The position numbers were made by a program, and so were the translations under genes. The notes beneath the pieces are model-generated. The model was not told the DNA's origin, made no database searches, and saw only the letters and a list, made by a program, of their open reading frames with translations. Of a DNA stretch of 64,000 nt, positions 3,224-61,788 are shown piece after piece. Where the stretch lies: NCBI GenBank assembly GCA_012521995.1, contig JAAYLH010000078.1:5535-69534 (forward strand). The letters run 5' to 3'. The DNA comes from Bacteroidales bacterium. GTDB lineage: Bacteria > Bacteroidota > Bacteroidia > Bacteroidales > UBA7960. Every line of letters begins with the position of its first letter. Position 1 is the first letter of the stretch.

Positions 3224-6200
3224 ATGGACGAAAAGATGTACAAGAAGTGGAATAACATCCTGGCCTGGGCTGTATTTGCCATAGGGGCCACGGTATTTTT
3301 TTCAAGCCTGGAGCCCACGGCCAGTTTTTGGGATGCAGGCGAGCGCCTCTCGGTTTCGTATAAGCTTCAGATCGGTCACCCCCCCGGAGCGCCGCTTTAC
3401 CAGATGATGGCGCGAATGTTCTCGTTGCTGTCGTTTGGCGACACGAGCAAAGTGGCATTCTGGATCAACGCCATGTCGGCCACGGCAGGTGCCCTGACGG
3501 TCAGTTTCCTGTTTCGCACCATCACCATCCTTGGGCGAAAACTCATTGCCGACAAGGTGGAAGTGACCCGGGAGCGTGCCATCGCCATCTTTGGCAGTGG
3601 ATTTGTCGGAGCCCTGGCCCTTACTTTTAGCGACTCGTTCTGGTTTACCGCCGTGGAAGCCGAGGTATATGTCACCTCCCTGTTTCTTACTGCTTTTGTG
3701 TTCTGGTCGATCCTGAAATGGGAGGCCAGCGAGCATGAAAAGGACTCGCTGCGCTGGCTTGTGATGATCGCCTTTATCATAGGGCTTTCCATCGGGGTGC
3801 ACATGCTCAACCTGCTTGCCATCCCTGCAATCGTATTTGTTTATTATTTCAAGAAGTTCAACCCGACGCCCAAGGGGATTATCATCACGGGGATCATCTC
3901 GGTGCTTTTGCTGGGATTTATCATGAGTGTGCTGATTCCGGGCATCCTGATTCTTGACTGGAGGTTTGAGAAGTTCTTTGTCAATGTGCTGGGCCTGCCC
4001 TTCCATAGCGGTACGATCTTTTACTTTGCAGCCCTCATCGCCGCCATAGCCTATGGCTTGTATTACACCCAAAAGCACAGGAAGGTGGTGCTGAATACGG
4101 TCATCCTTGCCGTGACCTTTATCGTCATTGGGTATTCGTCGTTTTTCATGCTGGTTGTGCGTTCCAATGCCCAGGTTCCCATCAACGAGAATGCGCCCAA
4201 GGATGCCCTGGCGATGAAGGCTTACCTGGGGCGTGAGCAATACGGCTCGTGGCCATTGCTGAAGGGGCCCTATTACAATTCGCCCATGATGGATGCTGTG
4301 GACGGCAAGCCTGTCTATGGCAAGAACAAGGAGAGCGGGCGTTATGAGGTCATCAATCCCCGCACCGGCCTTGAACCAGTTTACCATCCTGAATTTATCA
4401 CCCTGTTTCCCAGGATGCACAGCAACCAGCAGGCTATTCACGCAAGTGGCTATGAGAGCTGGGGCAACGTAAATGGGCGGCCCATACGGTTTACAGGCCC
4501 CGACGGGCAGCAGCGTACCATCACAAAGCCTACCTTTGGCGAGAACCTTCGTTTCTTCTTTGCTTACCAGATGGGTCATATGTACTGGCGATATTTTATG
4601 TGGAATTTCGCCGGCAGGCAAAACGACATCCAGGGACATGGGAGCCCCGTGGAGGGCAACTGGCTGAGCGGCATACGTTTCCTCGACGAGGCGCGGCTGG
4701 GGCCGCAGGATAAGCTGCCCGAGAGCATGGCATCCAACCGTGGATACAATCGTTATTACATGCTTCCTTTGCTGCTGGGCATCTTTGGCATGCTCTTCCA
4801 GCTGCGGCGCCGCCCCGGCGACACCCTGGTGGTTGCCCTGTTGTTTTTCATGACAGGATTGGCCATTGTGATCTACCTCAACCAGACGCCTTACCAGCCC
4901 CGTGAGCGCGACTATTCGTACATTGGCTCGTTTTATGCATTCTCCATCTGGGTGGGGTTGGGGGTGATGAGCCTGTACAACTTCATTGCGAAGAAGCTCA
5001 ACGGTAAGATTGCCGGGGTGCTGGCCATCGTGTTGGGGCTTTTGATGGCACCGGCCCTGTTTGCCAAAGAGAACTGGGACGACCACGACCGCTCGCACCG
5101 TTACCTGGTGAGGGATGTGGCCAAGAACTACCTGGAGTCGTGTGCCCCTAATGCCATCATTTTTACCAACGGCGACAATGATACGTTCCCGCTGTGGTAT
5201 GCCCAGGAGGTGGAGGGCGTGCGCCCGGACGTGAAGGTTGTGAACCTGAGCCTGTTCAACACCGACTGGTATATCAACAATATGATGCGTCGCAAGATGT
5301 ATGATGCCGAGCCCCTGCCCCTGAGCATGGAGCCCCATCAGTATCGCGACGGGACGCGGGATTATGTGTATATGGTTGAGAGCGAGACGCTTCAGGGGCA
5401 TCAGGACCTGCGCAGCGTGATTAACTTTGTGGGCAGCGATAACCAGCGTACGCGCATCAGGACCTCACGTGGCTTTGAAGATTATTTTCCGACAAAAAAA
5501 TTCCGCCTGCCTGTTGACTCGGCCAAAGTAGTGGCCAATGGCACGGTGGCTCCCGAGGATGCACACCTGATCGTGCCTTATGTGGAATGGACTATGGAAG
5601 GTACGGGGTTGCAGAAAAGTCATATGATGGTGCTTGATTTTCTGGCCGCCAACAACTGGGAGCGTCCTGTGTATTTCGCCATCACTACGGGAGGAGATTC
5701 GTATATGGGCCTGGAAGAGTATTTCCAACTGGATGGTATGGCTTATAGGCTGGTGCCCATCCGCACGCCCGATCTGGAAGGGCAGCCCGGACGGATCAAT
5801 ACCCGCATCCTGTATGACAACGTCATGAACAAGTTTGAGTGGGGCAACATCAACGACCCCAGGGTTTACCTCAACGAAGACCACCGCAGGCTTACGGTAA
5901 ACTTCCGTAATATCATGCAGCGGCTGGCCCATACGCTGATTGATGAGGGCAAGGCGGATTCGGCTGTGGTGGTGCTTGATAAGGCCATGGAATTGATGCC
6001 CGAAACGCAGGTGCCCTACAACTATTTCAACCTGCTGATTGGAGAAGCATATTACCGAGCAGGGGAGGTGGAAAAAGGGGCAGCCATTGCAGGACGCATG
6101 CTGGAGCTGTACGCACAGGATTTGAAGCATTACTTTAGTTTTACAGGCCAGCGGGCCACTTTCCTCGAGCGTAACAAGCAGGAAGCTCTTGCGCTGATGC

Positions 6201-54517: not shown

Positions 54518-56764
54518 ATGAAAAACCGGATAAAAATCTTGTTTGTAATAATACTTGTTGTGACTTCAGCCGTTATACGGGCCCAGGACAACAAGCTTAG
54601 GGGAGTGGTGCAGGAATCTGTTGACCACGATGGGCACGCCCATCTTTCCCCTCTGGCGGGGGCCAATGTGGTATGGCTTGGCACCACCAATGGGGCGGCT
54701 ACCGATGCCGAGGGGCGTTTCGTATTGGATAAGCCTGCCGGGCTGCCTCAGCAGTTGGTGGTCAGTTATATTGGCTACCAAAGCGATACCTTGACCATCA
54801 CCGCTGCCGATGCCGAGATTTCTGTAGTACTGGAAACCGCCCGCCAATTGGATGAGGTGGTAGTTGCTGGACGCAGGCCCGGCTCACATTACTCCAGCCT
54901 CGAACCCATGCTGACGGAAGTCATTACTCAAAGTGAGTTGCAGCGGGCCGCCTGCTGTAACCTCTCTGAGGCTTTTGAGACCAACGCCAGCATCGATGTA
55001 TCATACAGCGATGCCGTCTCTGGAGCCCAGCAGATCCAGTTGCTGGGCTTGGCGGGCATCTACAGCCAAATCCTCACCGAGAACATGCCTACCTTGCGGG
55101 GACTGGGCCAGCCCTTTGGCCTGAGCTATACCCCCGGACCCTGGATGGAATCGATTCAGGTGTCGAAGGGAGCGGCCAGCGTCATTAACGGCTATGAGTC
55201 CATTACAGGACAGATTAATGTGGAGCTTAAAAAACCTCAGAATGCCGAAAAGCTGTTCTATAACTTCTACGCCAACGACTTCGGCAGGCTCGAAAGCACC
55301 TTAAACGCTGCAGTGAATCTTAGCTCGCTATGGAGTACGATGGTGATGGCCCATGGCGAATTTCTGAACAACACTATTGACCACAACCACGACTCCTTCC
55401 TGGACCATCCCCTGGTCAGGAAATTCAATGTGGTCAACCGCTATCGTTATGACCGCCCAGGCATCATGGAGTCGCAGTTTGGGGTGAGGCTGATGCAGGA
55501 AGACCGTGAAGGAGGGCAGCAGTCTTTTTTCCAGGATAAGGAAGAATGGGGTTCACTGAACGCCTATGGCTTTGGCGTCAATACCCGCCGTTACGAGGCC
55601 TTTGCCAAGACAGGTTTTTTCTTCAGCAAAATGCCCAATGCCAGCCTGGGTACGCAGTTCGATTTTTCACACCACAGCCACGACTCGAACTATGGTCCTA
55701 CGACCTACGAGGGTACCCAGAATACCTTTTACGCCAACATCCTCTTTGAGAATACAATCGCCCAAAATCCTGACCACAGGTTTACCACCGGTGTGAGTTT
55801 CTTGATGGATGACTATCGTGAGATTCTGGCCGATAGCCTGTTCGATCGCCGCGAAGCAGTGCCTGGCATTTTCGGACAATATACAATGACCCGTGGTGGG
55901 CATTTCACTTTAATTGCAGGTTTGCGTGGTGACTTCCATAACATTTATGGTCCATTCCTTACGCCCCGCTTCCACCTGCGCTACAAGGCGGGTGAGTACA
56001 CCACCTTCCGAGCCTCTGCAGGGAGTGGTTTCCGCGTGCCCAACCTCATCGCCGAAAATACGGGGCTGCTGGTGAGTAATCGCAGTATACGCGTGCTTGA
56101 GGACATTGAACCTGAAAGGGCCTGGAATTATGGGGGCAGCATCACCCGCAGCCTCACCCTGATGGGCAAGGATGCTTCCATTACAGCCGAGTATTACCGG
56201 ACCGATTTCCAGAACCAGCTTATTGTGGATGTGGATGCCAAGCTTACCGAGGCCCGTTTCTACAACCTCGAAGGGCGTTCCTATGCCAACAATGTCCAGG
56301 TCGAGATGGGCTTCGAGCCCATTCGCAGGTTGGAGATGACCGCGGCCTACCGCTTCACCGATGTGAAGACCACCATCAACGGGGTGCTTGATACAAAGCC
56401 CTTCGTGAACCGCTACAAAGGGCTGCTCTCAGGCTCGTATGCCTCGCGCAACAACCGCTGGCAGTTCGACCTTACGGCTCAGTTCAACGGGCCCAGCCGC
56501 ATTCCTTCAACTGACATGCTGCCCGAAGCCCTCCGTATGCCCGAATCTTCCCCTGCCCATACCATCCTTCACGGACAGGTGACCTATAGTCTCAGGGCTT
56601 TCGACCTCTACCTGGGCGGAGAGAACCTGACCAATTTCAGGCAGATGAATCCCATTATTGCATCCGCTGAACCCTTCGGCGAGTACTTCGATGGCTCCAT
56701 GATCTGGGGGCCCATCCTGGGACGCATGTTTTATCTCGGCCTGCGCTATGCCATCGACAGGTAA
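54518..56764 (+). CDS. TonB-dependent receptor (CarboxypepD_reg + plug + barrel)
   Basis: Signal peptide MKNRIKILFVIILVVTSAVIRAQ, LRGVVQE...GANVVWLGTTNGAATDAEGRF, a plug region, and a long barrel. ATG 54518 preferred over the upstream start that overlaps the HMA gene. Confidence 0.88.
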   Translation: MKNRIKILFVIILVVTSAVIRAQDNKLRGVVQESVDHDGHAHLSPLAGANVVWLGTTNGAATDAEGRFVLDKPAGLPQQLVVSYIGYQSDTLTITAADAEISVVLETARQLDEVVVAGRRPGSHYSSLEPMLTEVITQSELQRAACCNLSEAFETNASIDVSYSDAVSGAQQIQLLGLAGIYSQILTENMPTLRGLGQPFGLSYTPGPWMESIQVSKGAASVINGYESITGQINVELKKPQNAEKLFYNFYANDFGRLESTLNAAVNLSSLWSTMVMAHGEFLNNTIDHNHDSFLDHPLVRKFNVVNRYRYDRPGIMESQFGVRLMQEDREGGQQSFFQDKEEWGSLNAYGFGVNTRRYEAFAKTGFFFSKMPNASLGTQFDFSHHSHDSNYGPTTYEGTQNTFYANILFENTIAQNPDHRFTTGVSFLMDDYREILADSLFDRREAVPGIFGQYTMTRGGHFTLIAGLRGDFHNIYGPFLTPRFHLRYKAGEYTTFRASAGSGFRVPNLIAENTGLLVSNRSIRVLEDIEPERAWNYGGSITRSLTLMGKDASITAEYYRTDFQNQLIVDVDAKLTEARFYNLEGRSYANNVQVEMGFEPIRRLEMTAAYRFTDVKTTINGVLDTKPFVNRYKGLLSGSYASRNNRWQFDLTAQFNGPSRIPSTDMLPEALRMPESSPAHTILHGQVTYSLRAFDLYLGGENLTNFRQMNPIIASAEPFGEYFDGSMIWGPILGRMFYLGLRYAIDR

Positions 56765-56786
56765 AGGATCCATGATCCTTTCCGGT

Positions 56787-56824
56787 AAACCGCCATGGCC
56801 CTCCGGTCTTGGCGGTTTTCTTTT
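56787..56824 (+). terminator. Rho-independent terminator
   Basis: AAACCGCCA (56787-56795) pairs with TGGCGGTTT (56810-56818), followed by TCTTTT. Confidence 0.75.
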
Positions 56825-56930
56825 GAGCCGTTGATGAAAATTTGATCAAAAATAGTGCCCTTTAGGGGTCTTTTTTGAGAAAAAAATTTCCTTTTCTTGC
56901 TGATTATGCATACATTTTAGGGTTTCGTTT

Positions 56931-56947
56931 TGATTAATTTTTAATCA
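56931..56947. promoter_or_regulatory. Perfect palindrome TGATTAA-TTT-TTAATCA (candidate operator) 18 bp upstream of the radical-SAM gene
   Basis: 7-bp arms are exact reverse complements. An extra TGATTA half-site lies at 56901-56906. Confidence 0.4.
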
Positions 56948-56964
56948 TTAAAAGATATAAACCC

Positions 56965-58215
56965 GTGAAGGAACAGGTCCTGAAAAAATTACAGGTACTT
57001 GCCGATGCAGCCAAGTACGACGTGTCCTGTTCTTCCAGTGGAAGTACGCGCCCCGCCAAGGATGGAGCCCTGGGCAATGCCGCCAGGGCCGGCGTCTGTC
57101 ATTCGTTCACCGAGGATGGCCGTTGCATTTCCCTGCTCAAAATCCTCTATACCAATTATTGCATCTACGACTGTGCCTATTGCATCAACCGCCGCAGCAA
57201 TGACTTGCCCAGAGCCGCCTTCTCGGTGGATGAGCTGGTGGACCTGACGCTGAATTTTTATCGGCGAAACTACATCGAAGGCCTGTTTCTCAGCTCAGGG
57301 GTGGTGGTCAGCCCCGATCACACCATGGAGCGCCTCATTGCCGTGGCCCGCAAGCTCCGTAACGAGCATCATTTCAATGGTTACATCCATATGAAGGCCA
57401 TCCCCGGCGCCAGCGCTGAGCTGGTGGCTGAAGCAGGCCTCTGGGCCGACCGCCTCAGTGTCAACATTGAGATCCCTTCCGAGAATAACCTGCGGCTGTT
57501 GGCTCCCGAAAAGAACTTCGGCAGCGTCCTCAGCCCCATGAACCAAATCCACCAGGGCATTGTGGTTAACAAGGAAGAACGCAGGAAATTTCGCAAGGCC
57601 CCCCGCTTTGTCCCTGCAGGGCAAAGCACCCAGCTCATCGTGGGGGCCAGCCCCGAAAGCGACTTCGATATCCTGCGTCTGGCCTCAGGCTTTTACAAGC
57701 AACAGCAACTTAAACGCGTTTACTATTCTGGTTTCGTGCCCGTTAACCTCAACGACAGCCGCTTGCCTGCCTTACTTAAGCCTCCCCTGGTTCGGGAAAA
57801 CCGCCTGTACCAGGCCGATTGGCTGATGCGCTTCTATCAGTTCAGCTTTGACGAGATTCTTGACGACAACCACAGTTTCCTCGACCCCAATTTTGATCCC
57901 AAGCTGACCTGGGCTTTGCGTAACCCCGCATTCTTCCCCATCGACCTGAACACCGCTTCCTATGAGATGATACTCAGGGTGCCCGGTATTGGGGTGCGCT
58001 CTGCCAAACTCATCGTTACCAACCGTCGTTTTGGAAGCATCACCTTCACCCACCTCAAGCGCATGGGCGTAGCCCTCAAACGTGCACGCTATTTCATCCT
58101 GTGCCGCGAACTACCCTTGCAGCTCAAAGAAGTGGACCCTGTTTACATACGCCGCAAACTGTCGCCCTCTATTCAACCCAAAGCCGTCCAGCTAAGCCTC
58201 TTCGAACATGCATGA
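56965..58215 (+). CDS. Putative DNA modification/repair radical SAM protein (TIGR03916-like)
   Basis: N-terminal LADAAKYDVSC. Radical-SAM cluster motif CIYDCAYC. C-terminal helix-hairpin-helix LRVPGIGVRSAKLIV. GTG start. Confidence 0.85.
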   Translation: MKEQVLKKLQVLADAAKYDVSCSSSGSTRPAKDGALGNAARAGVCHSFTEDGRCISLLKILYTNYCIYDCAYCINRRSNDLPRAAFSVDELVDLTLNFYRRNYIEGLFLSSGVVVSPDHTMERLIAVARKLRNEHHFNGYIHMKAIPGASAELVAEAGLWADRLSVNIEIPSENNLRLLAPEKNFGSVLSPMNQIHQGIVVNKEERRKFRKAPRFVPAGQSTQLIVGASPESDFDILRLASGFYKQQQLKRVYYSGFVPVNLNDSRLPALLKPPLVRENRLYQADWLMRFYQFSFDEILDDNHSFLDPNFDPKLTWALRNPAFFPIDLNTASYEMILRVPGIGVRSAKLIVTNRRFGSITFTHLKRMGVALKRARYFILCRELPLQLKEVDPVYIRRKLSPSIQPKAVQLSLFEHA

Positions 58216-59008
58216 AATGAAAGCCTCCTCTCTCAGCCTGGTGTATGACGGCAGCTACGATGGCTTCCTCTGTGCGGTATTCGAAGCCTTTGAACGCCGT
58301 ATCCTTCCACAAGCCCTGTTGCCTGCCAGCAGGCCCTTACAGCTTTTGCTTGGCGATCAACAGATGCTTGAAACCCATCCCAACCTTGCCGAACGGGTGC
58401 GCAAAGGGATAATCCGCAAGTCATCGCCTCGCAATGCCAGCCTGCTGCACGTGGCTTTCCTTTCGGAACTGCCGGGGGTGGAGTTGCTGTTGTTGCGCTA
58501 TCTGGTCAAGTTGTTTGCCGATGCCGGGGGCCGCTACTGGCAAAATATGCTCGACGAGGAGGTGTTTGAGGTGGTTCAGATTGCCCGCAAAGTCAAAAAG
58601 GAAGTCCACCGTTTCAATGGCTTTGTGCGTTTTCAGGAAACCGCCGATGGAATGTTCTTCGCGCCTATCGACCCCGACCATAACATCATCCGCCTGCTGG
58701 CCCGCCATTTTAGGACCCGCTTCTCAGGTCAGCAATGGATTATTTACGACACCAAGCGTAACTACGGCATTTATTACGATCTCCATACTGTGCAGGAGGT
58801 GGTGCTTCAAAACCACCGCATCAACTTCAATGCAGGCAATGTGGCCGGCGAAGTCAAAGCCCTAGATGAGGACTTTTACTGCCGCCTCTGGCAGGAATAC
58901 TACGATGCCGTCAACATCCTCGAGCGCCAAAACCATCGACAGATGACCAATCTGATGCCCCGGCGTTACTGGAAATACCTCCCCGAAAAGAACAAGGCAG
59001 GCAAGTAA
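58208..59008 (+). CDS. DUF4130 / TIGR03915-like putative DNA repair protein (no fused UDG domain)
   Basis: LVYDGSYDGFLCAVFEAFE N-terminus and ...RFNGFVRFQE...FAPI.PDHNI... core. An 8-nt overlap with the radical-SAM gene. Confidence 0.8.
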   Translation: MHEMKASSLSLVYDGSYDGFLCAVFEAFERRILPQALLPASRPLQLLLGDQQMLETHPNLAERVRKGIIRKSSPRNASLLHVAFLSELPGVELLLLRYLVKLFADAGGRYWQNMLDEEVFEVVQIARKVKKEVHRFNGFVRFQETADGMFFAPIDPDHNIIRLLARHFRTRFSGQQWIIYDTKRNYGIYYDLHTVQEVVLQNHRINFNAGNVAGEVKALDEDFYCRLWQEYYDAVNILERQNHRQMTNLMPRRYWKYLPEKNKAGK

Positions 59009-59088
59009 AATTGCTTGCCTCCGGCAATGGGAATGCGCTGCAGGTTTGGAAAAAAATGACCAAATTTGTGGTGCAGATCCCAAAGCCA

Positions 59089-60903
59089 ATGAAGCGCCCC
59101 GGCACCCCTCATAAAGAACGCATCCAACTTGCCCTGAAAACCCTCCCGGGTAAGCCCGGCGTCTACCAGTTCTATGACGAGCAGGGGCGCATCATTTACA
59201 TCGGTAAGGCCAAAAACCTGAAGAAAAGGGTGTCGTCCTATTTTAACCGGGAGCATTACGACAGCGGCAAGGTAATGGTGATGGTGAAGCGTGTGGCCGA
59301 CATCCGCCACATCATTGTCGACAGCGAACTCGATGCTTTGCTGCTCGAAAACAACCTCATCAAGAAGTATCAGCCGCGCTACAACATCATGCTCAAGGAC
59401 GACAAGACCTACCCCTGGATCTGCATCAAGAATGAGCCCTTCCCCCGCATCCTAACCACCCGTAACCTGGTGCGCGACGGCAGCAAATACTTCGGCCCCT
59501 ATGCCTCGGGCAAGATGATGCACGCCCTGCTCGACCTCATCCGCCACCTTTTCCAGTACCGCACCTGTCGCCTCAACCTCAGCCCCGAAAACATCAGTGC
59601 AGGCAAGTTCAAGGTCTGCCTCGAATATCACCTGGGCAACTGCCTGGGGCCCTGCGAGGGACTGCAGTCGCCCGAGGACTATCAGGAGACCATGGACCAG
59701 ATCGAGGAGATCATCAAGGGCAACCTGGTGGAGGTCAAGGCAAAGCTCAAAGCAAGGATGAAAACCTATGCCGAAGCCTATGAATTTGAGAAAGCCCAGG
59801 CCGTCAAGCAAAGGATCGAACTGCTCGAGCATTATCAGGGCAAATCTACTGTAGTCAATATGTCGGTAACCAATGTGGATGTCTTCTCGGTCATCAGCGA
59901 CGAGGATTATGGTTATGTGAACTTTATGAAGGTGATCAACGGAGCAGTGGTCCAGTCGCATACCCTTGAGGTGCGCAAAAAGCTTGATGAAACCGATGCC
60001 GAGCTCCTTGAGATGGCTATGGTAGAGTTGCGGCAGCGCTTCCAGAGTGAGGCCGTCGAATCAGTGGTGCCTTTCAAGCCCTCTATCCCTGTGCCGGGGG
60101 TACGCATTACCATCCCGCAAAGGGGCGACAAGAAAAAACTGCTCGAGCTCTCAGAGCGCAACGCCAAATATTATCGCCTCGAGAAACTCAAGCAAAAGGA
60201 ATTGGTCGACCCCGAGCGTCATACCCGCCGCATCCTGAAAAAAATGCAGGATGACCTGCACCTGCCGGCTCCGCCCGCCTACATTGAGTGTTTCGACAAC
60301 AGCAACACCCAGGGCACCTATCCCGTGGCGGCCATGGTGGTGTTTCGCGATGCCCGCCCCAGCAAGAAGGATTACCGTCATTTTAACATCAAAACCGTGG
60401 AAGGCCCCGACGACTTCGCCAGCATGGAAGAGGTCGTCACCCGTCGCTATAAGCGTTTGCAGGCCGATGGCCAGCTCCTGCCCGACCTGGTGGTGGTTGA
60501 TGGGGGCAAGGGTCAGCTCAGCGCCGCCGTTGAGGCTCTGCAGAGCCTGGGCCTGCGTGGGAAAGTACCCATTATTGGCATCGCAAAACGCCTCGAAGAG
60601 ATTTATTTCCCCGGCGACACCATCCCCATTTATATTGACAAGAAATCGGAAACGCTCAAGGTCATTCAGCACCTGCGCGACGAAGCCCACCGCTTTGGAA
60701 TCACCCACCATCGCAAACGCCGCGAGAAGGGGAGCCTCAAATCGCAGCTTTCAGAAATAAAGGGCATCGGCCCCCAAACCGAACAAATCCTGCTGAACAC
60801 CTTTAAATCGGTGGCAGGCATCAAACGCGCCAGCGAAGAAGAACTGAAAAAAGTCGTCGGAAAAGCCAAAACCAGGATACTGAAGGATTTTTTTAAAGAT
60901 TGA
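59089..60903 (+). CDS. uvrC: Excinuclease ABC subunit C
   Basis: GIY-YIG (PGVYQFYDEQGRIIYIGKAKNLKKRVSSYF...YNI), UVR domain (FEKAQAVKQRIELLE), endonuclease domain, C-terminal HhH2 (IKGIGPQTEQILLNTFKSVAGIKRAS). The start is ambiguous: ATG 59089 fits UvrC N-termini best; ATG 59056 and TTG 59011 (2 nt after the DUF4130 stop) are alternatives. Confidence 0.93.
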   Translation: MKRPGTPHKERIQLALKTLPGKPGVYQFYDEQGRIIYIGKAKNLKKRVSSYFNREHYDSGKVMVMVKRVADIRHIIVDSELDALLLENNLIKKYQPRYNIMLKDDKTYPWICIKNEPFPRILTTRNLVRDGSKYFGPYASGKMMHALLDLIRHLFQYRTCRLNLSPENISAGKFKVCLEYHLGNCLGPCEGLQSPEDYQETMDQIEEIIKGNLVEVKAKLKARMKTYAEAYEFEKAQAVKQRIELLEHYQGKSTVVNMSVTNVDVFSVISDEDYGYVNFMKVINGAVVQSHTLEVRKKLDETDAELLEMAMVELRQRFQSEAVESVVPFKPSIPVPGVRITIPQRGDKKKLLELSERNAKYYRLEKLKQKELVDPERHTRRILKKMQDDLHLPAPPAYIECFDNSNTQGTYPVAAMVVFRDARPSKKDYRHFNIKTVEGPDDFASMEEVVTRRYKRLQADGQLLPDLVVVDGGKGQLSAAVEALQSLGLRGKVPIIGIAKRLEEIYFPGDTIPIYIDKKSETLKVIQHLRDEAHRFGITHHRKRREKGSLKSQLSEIKGIGPQTEQILLNTFKSVAGIKRASEEELKKVVGKAKTRILKDFFKD

Positions 60904-61005
60904 TTTGGTTAACTGAAATAAATAGCCTTTTTTTGCTTTTGCCTCTGGTTTTGAGGCCAGGTATCCTATTCAGATAAGCCCTTATTAAGTCTTCTTGTTT
61001 TTTTA

Positions 61006-61788
61006 ATGACTACAGAACGATTCGGGGAACAGGACAACAGGCTCTATTCACAAGCCGCAATTGCCATTGCCACCTATCTTGGCGGCCCCGTGGCAGCAGT
61101 TGCACTGATGCGCCGGAACTTTATCAATCTTGGCCAGGAACAATGGGGGAAGCATGCCTTTTTCATTGGATTTATCGTCACCGTAATGATTTTCCTGGGG
61201 ATTTTTATGATGCCTGAGGCCATTCTTGAAAAAATTCCTGAACCCCTGATCCCTGCCATCTATACCGGTATTATTTTCCTCATCGTGGAGCGCCTGCAGG
61301 GAACTAAAATAAAGGAGCACAATGAAAACAACCTCCCTTTCTTCTCTAAATGGCGGGCTGCAGGCATTGGCGCAATTTATCTTTCTGGATTACTGGCAGT
61401 AATATTTACCTATGCGTATTTAAGCCCTGATGATTTCGATAGCGTGGCCTACGACCAGGGAATCAGTGAGTTCGTGCACAACGAGGAACAATCGATGGAG
61501 GTTTTCATTTTGCTTGAAAGCGGGCAGATAAGCCAAGTGGTTCGTTTTATCCCCGAAAGGGCTATTCCCCTCTGGCAACGCAACCTGGAAATTACCAGGG
61601 ATATTGCAGGAATTGAGGGCCTTTACCCCGAGCTGAAAACCCAAGCCGAACAACTTCAGGAATATGCACATTTGCGCATTAAATCACTGGAACTGATCAG
61701 AAAGGGGCTGGTGGAGGATACCGATGATTATGATACAGAAATCGATATGATTTTCATGGAGATCAATGAAATCCTTGAAAATTTGTAA
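61006..61788 (+). CDS. Hypothetical membrane protein
   Basis: Four predicted TM helices in the first 140 aa, then an acidic helical soluble domain. No family recognised. Confidence 0.6.
   Translation: MTTERFGEQDNRLYSQAAIAIATYLGGPVAAVALMRRNFINLGQEQWGKHAFFIGFIVTVMIFLGIFMMPEAILEKIPEPLIPAIYTGIIFLIVERLQGTKIKEHNENNLPFFSKWRAAGIGAIYLSGLLAVIFTYAYLSPDDFDSVAYDQGISEFVHNEEQSMEVFILLESGQISQVVRFIPERAIPLWQRNLEITRDIAGIEGLYPELKTQAEQLQEYAHLRIKSLELIRKGLVEDTDDYDTEIDMIFMEINEILENL

Follow-up and report, generated by a model that had tools for sequence, protein, structure and literature searches.

A predicted SOS operator upstream of a radical-SAM/DUF4130 gene pair that neighbours uvrC in an uncultured Bacteroidales family

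Introduction

The closest described relatives of the regulatory arrangement considered here are the non-canonical LexA proteins of Bacteroidetes, which combine a PF01381 helix-turn-helix (HTH) domain with an S24 domain, bind boxes of the form dyad-N5-dyad (CTAA-N5-TTAG or GGA-N5-TCC) and govern a regulon that includes dinB, ssb and a COG1573-COG4277 operon; both ortholog groups were reported to be absent from the order Bacteroidales, and regulation of UvrC by Bacteroidetes LexA was reported in some species (Sanchez-Osuna et al. 2021, PMC8565304). SOS-regulated operons of COG4277 and COG1573/TIGR03915 genes were described in Bacteroidetes, Verrucomicrobia and Alphaproteobacteria (PMC8565304). 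Here we analyse such a gene pair in a 64,000-nucleotide (nt) stretch of DNA (the window) from an uncultured Bacteroidales bacterium of GTDB lineage UBA7960 (GenBank assembly GCA_012521995.1, contig JAAYLH010000078.1, positions 5,535 to 69,534), in which a radical S-adenosylmethionine (SAM) gene and a DUF4130 gene are followed by uvrC and preceded by a palindrome. A previous inspection of the DNA letters (the sequence-only reading) had proposed that this palindrome is a repressor operator, possibly for damage response, of the whole three-gene unit, and that the linkage to uvrC is independent support for a role of the pair in lesion repair.

Among damage-induced gene pairs of uncharacterised chemistry, the radical-SAM/DUF4130 pair is one of the most widespread, and the present locus does not reveal that chemistry. 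In Acinetobacter the two genes belong to the DdaA-dependent DNA-damage response (PMC12392091), and a 2026 preprint gives a confident prediction of a radical-SAM/DUF4130 heterodimer in which DUF4130 is proposed to be a non-catalytic nucleic-acid-binding partner, leaving the chemistry open. Our literature search found no biochemical characterisation of the TIGR03916 family and no paper describing the TGATTA-N5-TAATCA box reported below. Spore photoproduct lyase SplB (COG1533), an often-cited analogue, is likewise a radical-SAM protein that is predicted to act on DNA and is SOS-regulated in several phyla, but it belongs to a different family.

Compared with the non-canonical LexA system, the predicted repressor of the present genome has the same HTH_3 N-terminus and S24 C-terminus with Ala-Gly, Ser and Lys residues, its gene is likewise divergent from an error-prone polymerase gene with boxes lying between the two, and these boxes have the same dyad-N5-dyad layout and outer TTTG...CAAA bases. 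The differences are that the half-site here is TGATTA where the published one is TGCTAA (two of six bases differ), that the system was reported missing from Bacteroidales yet occurs in a lineage that carries this label, and that the regulon is small (three promoter regions) with no full recA box; orthology to the repressors of the CTAA group is putative. The gene pair has the same two families as the SOS-regulated COG4277 operon, the same adjoining and overlapping genes, a box in common with dinB and the repressor gene, and the same C-terminal clamp-type motif, as do most homologs. It differs from that operon in having DUF4130 alone as the partner, without a family-4/UdgX-type uracil-DNA glycosylase (UDG), as in all 69 sampled genes, in its operator (TGATTA-N5-TAATCA, not CTAA-N5-TTAG or GGA-N5-TCC), and in that uvrC follows it in one family. 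The gene pair itself is known; what sets this case apart is the variant form of the box, the occurrence of that variant in lineages labelled Bacteroidales, and a position of the pair before uvrC that is peculiar to one family.

Results

A conserved box precedes the radical-SAM gene

The promoter region of the radical-SAM gene contains the following elements:

56929-56949, no strand: main operator TTTGATTAATTTTTAATCATT, predicted site of an HTH_3+S24 non-canonical LexA
56911-56918, + strand: "-7"-like promoter element TACATTTT, whose start is 17-18 nt before the box in every ortholog
56830-56850, no strand: distal SOS-type box GTTGATGAAAATTTGATCAAA, weaker than the main one and 99 bp upstream of it

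The core palindrome, TGATTAATTTTTAATCA (TGATTAA-TTT-TTAATCA), occupies 56931-56947, ends 17 nt (56948-56964) before the GTG start codon, and is accompanied by an additional TGATTA half-site at 56901. Both had been pointed out by the sequence-only reading and both are present, but the perfection of the palindrome is not in itself beyond chance, as the window contains five perfect 7-N3-7 palindromes compared with 3.6 ± 2.0 in shuffled sequences. That reading had also suggested a genome-wide search for TGATTAA-N3-TTAATCA; with at most one mismatch allowed, this exact pattern is too strict and finds a single occurrence in the 3.26-Mb genome, the site itself, which equals the count in the reversed control. 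The real motif is TGATTA-N5-TAATCA with degenerate positions, so a search for the exact palindrome would have led to the operator being wrongly dismissed.

The palindrome is one instance of a conserved 21-bp box, TTTGATTA-N5-TAATCAAA. Orthologous loci were taken from genomes of the same family, and all 11 orthologs that had upstream DNA carry a TTTGATyA-N5-TrATCA box 28-38 nt upstream of the start codon, within intergenic DNA that is otherwise not alignable among them. Information content across 12 box-anchored promoters is 1.75 bits per column in the arms of the box, compared with 0.59 in the 45 nt upstream and 0.29 in the 12 nt downstream. The same 12 orthologous promoters show a second conservation peak, TAyATT, at -18 to -13 from the box. 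This peak is similar to the Bacteroidetes "-7" promoter consensus, TAnnTTTG, and we infer that the element at 56911-56918 acts as the promoter; the main box would then lie over or just past the presumed transcription start, a placement that suits a repressor. A sigma-70 promoter scan of the region was uninformative, since this phylum uses other promoter elements. The distal box scores 19.9-20.7 bits, compared with a maximum of 15.4 bits in the reversed-genome control, and such a two-box arrangement was found among the orthologs at one other locus only (L030).

The box recurs at SOS genes

A weight matrix was built from the radical-SAM-upstream sites alone, used to scan the whole genome and then refined, with the reversed genome as the control. 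The top non-training matches with the initial matrix (24-25 bits) were at C69:10184, C69:10207 and C94:52564 (contig and position), and these score 30.8, 27.9 and 25.7 bits, respectively, with the refined matrix, for which the control maximum is 15.4 bits. The two C69 boxes lie 23 bp apart in the divergent region between dinB, which encodes polymerase IV, and a gene for a 281-amino-acid (aa) HTH_3+Peptidase_S24 protein, and the C94 box lies 29 nt before ssb. After a gap in the scores come a 20.1-bit match inside a toxin-like open reading frame (ORF) and then the distal window site at 19.9 bits. Lower-scoring matches on C136, C76, C37, C79 and C78 were set aside, as they are intragenic or between convergent genes. 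Boxes are present between dinB and the lexA-like gene in all 20 relatives that were checked, three other families of the order included, and 17 of the 20 have two boxes there; the ssb box occurs at the same offset in seven of the nine other genomes of the genus that were examined and in two other genera, often with one degenerate arm. We judge the site upstream of the radical-SAM gene to be real because it is conserved and because the relaxed motif recurs at SOS genes, rather than because the palindrome is perfect. The palindrome is thus very probably an SOS operator, and the earlier idea of an operator is borne out in silico, in the form of a putative non-canonical LexA box common to the lexA-like/dinB and ssb promoters.

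The protein predicted to bind these boxes is encoded as follows:

C69:9187-10032: lexA-like repressor gene, 281 aa, HTH_3 + Peptidase_S24

It matches HTH_3 with 54.7 bits (residues 8-62) and Peptidase_S24 with 35.1 bits (residues 113-220). Invariant motifs among 19 homologs are KA-AGY, G(D/N)SM and (F/Y)K, and the Ala-Gly, Ser and Lys residues were assigned by motif analogy to LexA. Close homologs are found in this family and in at least seven further families of the same order. Beyond the S24 domain the protein continues for about 50 aa (residues ~225-281) in a coiled-coil-like tail, whose terminal TGxLF is conserved within the genus. A lexA-like paralog of 41% identity lies divergently beside the radical-SAM gene at a locus from another family of the order (L003, G033:C112, 2320-2601) and may be a dedicated repressor copy; the intergenic region there has different AT-rich palindromes.

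Hymenobacter, Pontibacter, Mucilaginibacter and other loci, all of them in other orders, have boxes of the published CTAA-N5-TTAG type before their radical-SAM gene. When one such instance, TTTGCTAA-N5-TTAGCAAA, is set against TTTGATTA-N5-TAATCAAA, the outer bases are identical and two inner half-site bases differ, and the palindrome is very probably a diverged form of the published Bacteroidetes box. The Maribellus and Draconibacterium loci (L060 and L067) have two TGATAA-N5-TTATCA-like sites 24 bp apart, 126-239 nt upstream of the radical-SAM gene, a variant that is intermediate in form to the TGATTA-N5-TAATCA box. The gut Bacteroides, Prevotella and Parabacteroides loci in the sample have no such box. 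A rumen Bacteroidales metagenome-assembled genome (locus L095), of a lineage without the SOS box, has three 21-bp palindromes of the type ATGCTGAAATAAATTCAGCAT, about 65 bp apart and 111-242 nt upstream of the radical-SAM gene, which may be an array of a different regulator.

The radical-SAM/DUF4130 pair

The genes of the locus and the terminator-like elements that precede them are:

56965-58215, + strand: radical SAM / helix-hairpin-helix protein, 416 aa, GTG start, TIGR03916, COG4277
58208-59008, + strand: DUF4130 / TIGR03915 partner, 266 aa, without a UDG domain
59089-60903, + strand: uvrC (TIGR00194), 604 aa, the sole full-length uvrC of the genome
56787-56824, + strand: terminator-like hairpin with T-run, 3' of the upstream TonB-dependent receptor gene (RNA fold, terminator scan, sequence)
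56857-56877, + strand: second terminator-like hairpin (terminator scan, RNA fold)

The upstream TonB-receptor operon ends at these two hairpins, which makes the radical-SAM gene the first of a new transcription unit. There is an 8-nt overlap between the radical-SAM and DUF4130 ORFs. From 59011 onwards the uvrC frame is open, and a conserved ATG at 59089 gives an 80-nt spacer after DUF4130; relatives lack the alternative ATG found at 59056 (TCGCC there, TGACC in the window). Coordinates, overlap, open frame and spacer are all as the sequence-only reading had given them, and its family assignments were likewise confirmed with profile hidden Markov models: the 416-aa protein matches TIGR03916 with 642.6 bits (cut-off 343.5) over model positions 2-401 of 415 and Pfam Radical_SAM with 37.8 bits, the 266-aa protein matches TIGR03915 with 237.8 bits (cut-off 112.25) and Pfam DUF4130 with 165 bits, and UvrC matches TIGR00194 with 540.9 bits (cut-off 285.45) and has the Pfam domains GIY-YIG, UvrC_RNaseH, UvrC_RNaseH_dom and HHH_5. 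The pair is an already catalogued, translationally coupled two-gene module (COG4277/TIGR03916-TIGR03915). An Rfam scan of 56600-61100 gave no credible RNA family.

The CIYDCAYC cluster motif that had been noticed in the 416-aa protein is part of NYCIYDCAYC, whose C66-x3-C70-x2-C73 is invariant in 57 sequences. The C-terminal helix-hairpin-helix that had been named with it is marginal: Pfam HHH_3 scores 26.7 bits at residues 326-355 against a cut-off of 27, and a ComEA-like PDB match to this region has E = 0.037. Four further residues, C22, C45, H46 and C54, are also invariant in the 57 homologs; they lie in the invariant AAKYDVSCSSSG...CHSFTEDGRCISLLK segment (residues 16-59, window 56965-57190), in which AlphaFold2 confidence is low. 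Their invariance suggests a second metal site or catalytic cysteines, and they may coordinate an auxiliary cluster. At its C-terminus the protein reads ...QLSLFEHA, with QLSLF encoded at 58189-58203. Of 79 homologs, 75 have QLxLF or QLxLxF among their final 25 residues; we take this motif to resemble beta-clamp-binding peptides.

Sequence searches of the PDB found no relative of the radical-SAM enzyme. Its AlphaFold2 model is of moderate quality (predicted local distance difference test score 73.9), and Foldseek matched it to generic radical-SAM cores only (HydE, viperin, BioB, PFL-AE and LipA, with template-modelling scores of about 0.36-0.39). The label "SplB-like" is unsupported, as no spore photoproduct lyase is among the top 50 Foldseek matches.

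The 266-aa protein has DUF4130 as its only domain and no relative in the PDB by sequence search. It is not fused to a family-4 (TIGR03914/UdgX-type) UDG domain, a fusion that is optional in the family, in agreement with what had been noted from its letters. All 69 complete DUF4130 genes in our mostly Bacteroidota sample encode 252-316 aa, which is too short for a UDG fusion, so DUF4130 without UDG is the rule in this sample. The further proposal that uvrC takes the place of the missing UDG domain does not hold, since none of these 69 genes has the UDG domain and none outside the present family has uvrC adjoining. The one UDG-like gene of the genome is unlinked (contig C24), scores 132.7 bits against the TIGR03914 cut-off of 189.95, and has no box.

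uvrC is a neighbour in one family

The order TonB receptor, radical SAM, DUF4130, uvrC, ClC is found in nine family loci with uvrC directly downstream, representing about six genera, and the pair is patchy even within the genus, being carried by 5 of 11 genomes. In a diverse sample of 80 loci (mostly Bacteroidota, with some Proteobacteria and Fibrobacter), uvrC lies within 6 kb of the pair in two, and both of these have the same family synteny. The adjacency therefore fails as independent functional evidence, and it looks like a family-specific accident of gene order that reflects one historical arrangement. The box also goes with the pair rather than with uvrC: 13 family genomes that lack an intact pair have no box within 400 nt upstream of uvrC (about 120 nt in one contig-limited case), and in genome G014 the pair is located elsewhere and retains its boxes, and uvrC does not accompany it.

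The spacer before uvrC contains a conserved element:

59043-59068, + strand: promoter-like element GGTTTGGAAAAAAATGACCAAATTTG in the 80-nt spacer, identified by conservation upstream of uvrC
59061-59068, + strand: "-7"-like CAAATTTG, ending 20 nt before the uvrC ATG

Family genomes have the corresponding sequence AAAAAWTnnCCAAMTTTG some 20-30 nt ahead of the uvrC start, whether they carry the pair or not. This element is presumably uvrC's own promoter, and uvrC probably has independent expression. A terminator scan found no + strand terminator between 58215 and 59089, so read-through from the pair into uvrC is possible.

Genome G006, of the same genus, no longer has the pair because of a deletion at locus L039 (G006:C14:346500-352500, at about 3700-4150), which corresponds to window positions 57073 and 59023. 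A GGCAATG direct repeat is present at both of these breakpoints in the window, which suggests a microhomology deletion.

The DUF4130-uvrC spacer (58985-59090) has a very stable RNA fold of -50.8 kcal/mol (z = -7.7). In it, the stop codon of DUF4130 sits in the loop of a 10-bp hairpin, and a second hairpin, of 16 bp, extends across the uvrC promoter-like element. We do not claim it as an RNA element, as members of the family share no consensus structure and the core stem does not vary within the genus, which leaves no covariation to assess.

Discussion

We consider that these observations are best explained, with a probability of about 0.8, by an SOS-regulated two-gene cassette next to which uvrC is a housekeeping neighbour with its own promoter. 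In this uncultured Bacteroidales family, the cassette would be part of an SOS regulon of small size. A phage-CI-like repressor (HTH_3, and S24 with Ala-Gly, Ser and Lys) would bind TTTGATTA-N5-TAATCAAA as a dimer, and because the box lies just downstream of a "-7"-type element the bound repressor would prevent transcription. Once RecA had been activated by DNA damage, self-cleavage of the repressor would free the cassette from repression, together with dinB, the repressor's own gene and probably ssb. The C-terminal QLSLF would then anchor the radical-SAM enzyme to the beta sliding clamp and, with DUF4130 as a nucleic-acid-binding partner, the enzyme would use a 5'-deoxyadenosyl radical against a DNA lesion or base where forks have stalled. 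The uvrC gene would be the family's housekeeping nucleotide-excision repair (NER) gene beside the insertion site, with its own promoter retained, and would gain at most some extra damage-induced expression through read-through.

Several points weigh against this explanation. The evidence for the promoter elements is their resemblance to a consensus, and that for the predicted link between the box and the S24 protein is the autoregulation pattern. The S24 domain of the lexA-like protein is divergent (Pfam E = 1.2e-8), a PDB sequence search with this protein matched the HTH part only and no solved S24 structure, and BLASTP comparison with E. coli LexA was uninformative. The recA gene has a half-site only (best score 4.9 bits), which makes the regulon unusually small. 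The pair-uvrC adjacency, where the pair is present, persists across about six genera and could reflect selection for co-expression, and in G006 the deletion has brought the box, with the first 37 codons of the radical-SAM gene, immediately in front of the uvrC promoter region.

Three other explanations need to be weighed. In the first, which follows the sequence-only reading, the box would control one SOS transcript of radical-SAM, DUF4130 and uvrC, and the pair and UvrC would work on the same lesions. We think this rather unlikely. The three genes are co-directional, with an 80-nt spacer and no + strand terminator at 58215-59089, but a promoter-like element stands before uvrC regardless of the pair, and as the sole full-length uvrC of the genome this gene must be constitutively expressed. 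The pair-then-uvrC order in nine family loci of about six genera speaks for an operon, yet adjacency in the diverse sample comes down to 2 of 80 loci of the same synteny group. It is also true that LexA is reported to control UvrC in some Bacteroidetes (PMC8565304) and that the G006 deletion put the box and promoter directly upstream of uvrC; nonetheless, uvrC has no box in the 13 family genomes without an intact pair, and the relocated pair of G014 keeps its boxes without uvrC following.

That the box belongs to a regulator other than the S24 protein, for example a local or stress regulator that also controls dinB and ssb, is very improbable. Binding by the S24 protein is a prediction, recA has no full box, and several HTH proteins could recognise an AT-rich 6-N5-6 dyad; set against this, boxes in the S24 gene's own promoter region in 20 of 20 relatives are the signature of LexA-type autoregulation, the dyad-N5-dyad form with outer TTTG...CAAA matches the published boxes of this repressor family, and dinB, ssb and the COG4277 pair are the published regulon gene set. 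Finally, the palindrome could be a chance AT-rich inverted repeat with no regulatory role, as the chance frequency of 7-N3-7 palindromes in the window and the uniqueness of the exact word in the genome might suggest. This is extremely improbable in view of the 1.75 bits per column in the arms against 0.29-0.59 in the flanks of the 12 orthologous promoters, the top genome matches of the relaxed motif, which are all at SOS genes and at least 10 bits above the control, and the dinB/lexA-like boxes in every one of the 20 relatives.

The SOS-regulated cassette with an independently expressed uvrC would remove a false clue about the function of the pair, the uvrC linkage being one family's synteny and not a recurrent association, and would widen the range of the non-canonical LexA system of Bacteroidetes to include uncultured lineages that carry the label Bacteroidales. 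A defined operator variant with two changed half-site bases, together with a very small regulon, should be useful for studies of SOS-box drift, and the sliding-clamp-type C-terminal peptide in 75 of the 79 homologs surveyed points to clamp-loaded, fork-associated DNA substrates. A wider scheme, speculative and in our opinion quite unlikely, is that environmental (non-gut) Bacteroidales families run a minimal SOS response with a non-canonical LexA, a retuned TGATTA-N5-TAATCA box and a conserved core of lexA-like, dinB and, where present, the cassette, and that one family has wired the cassette before uvrC so that, after damage, the capacity for NER incision rises through read-through. If this were true, the enzyme pair would feed lesions to excision repair, or clean up after it, at clamp-bound stalled forks.

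One further feature lies downstream of the locus. Between uvrC and the ClC channel gene, window positions 61006-61788 encode a 260-aa predicted membrane protein that has no Pfam or NCBIfam match and no tblastn match in the syntenic loci of relatives. In these relatives ClC directly follows uvrC, and the membrane protein gene is probably a genome-specific insertion.

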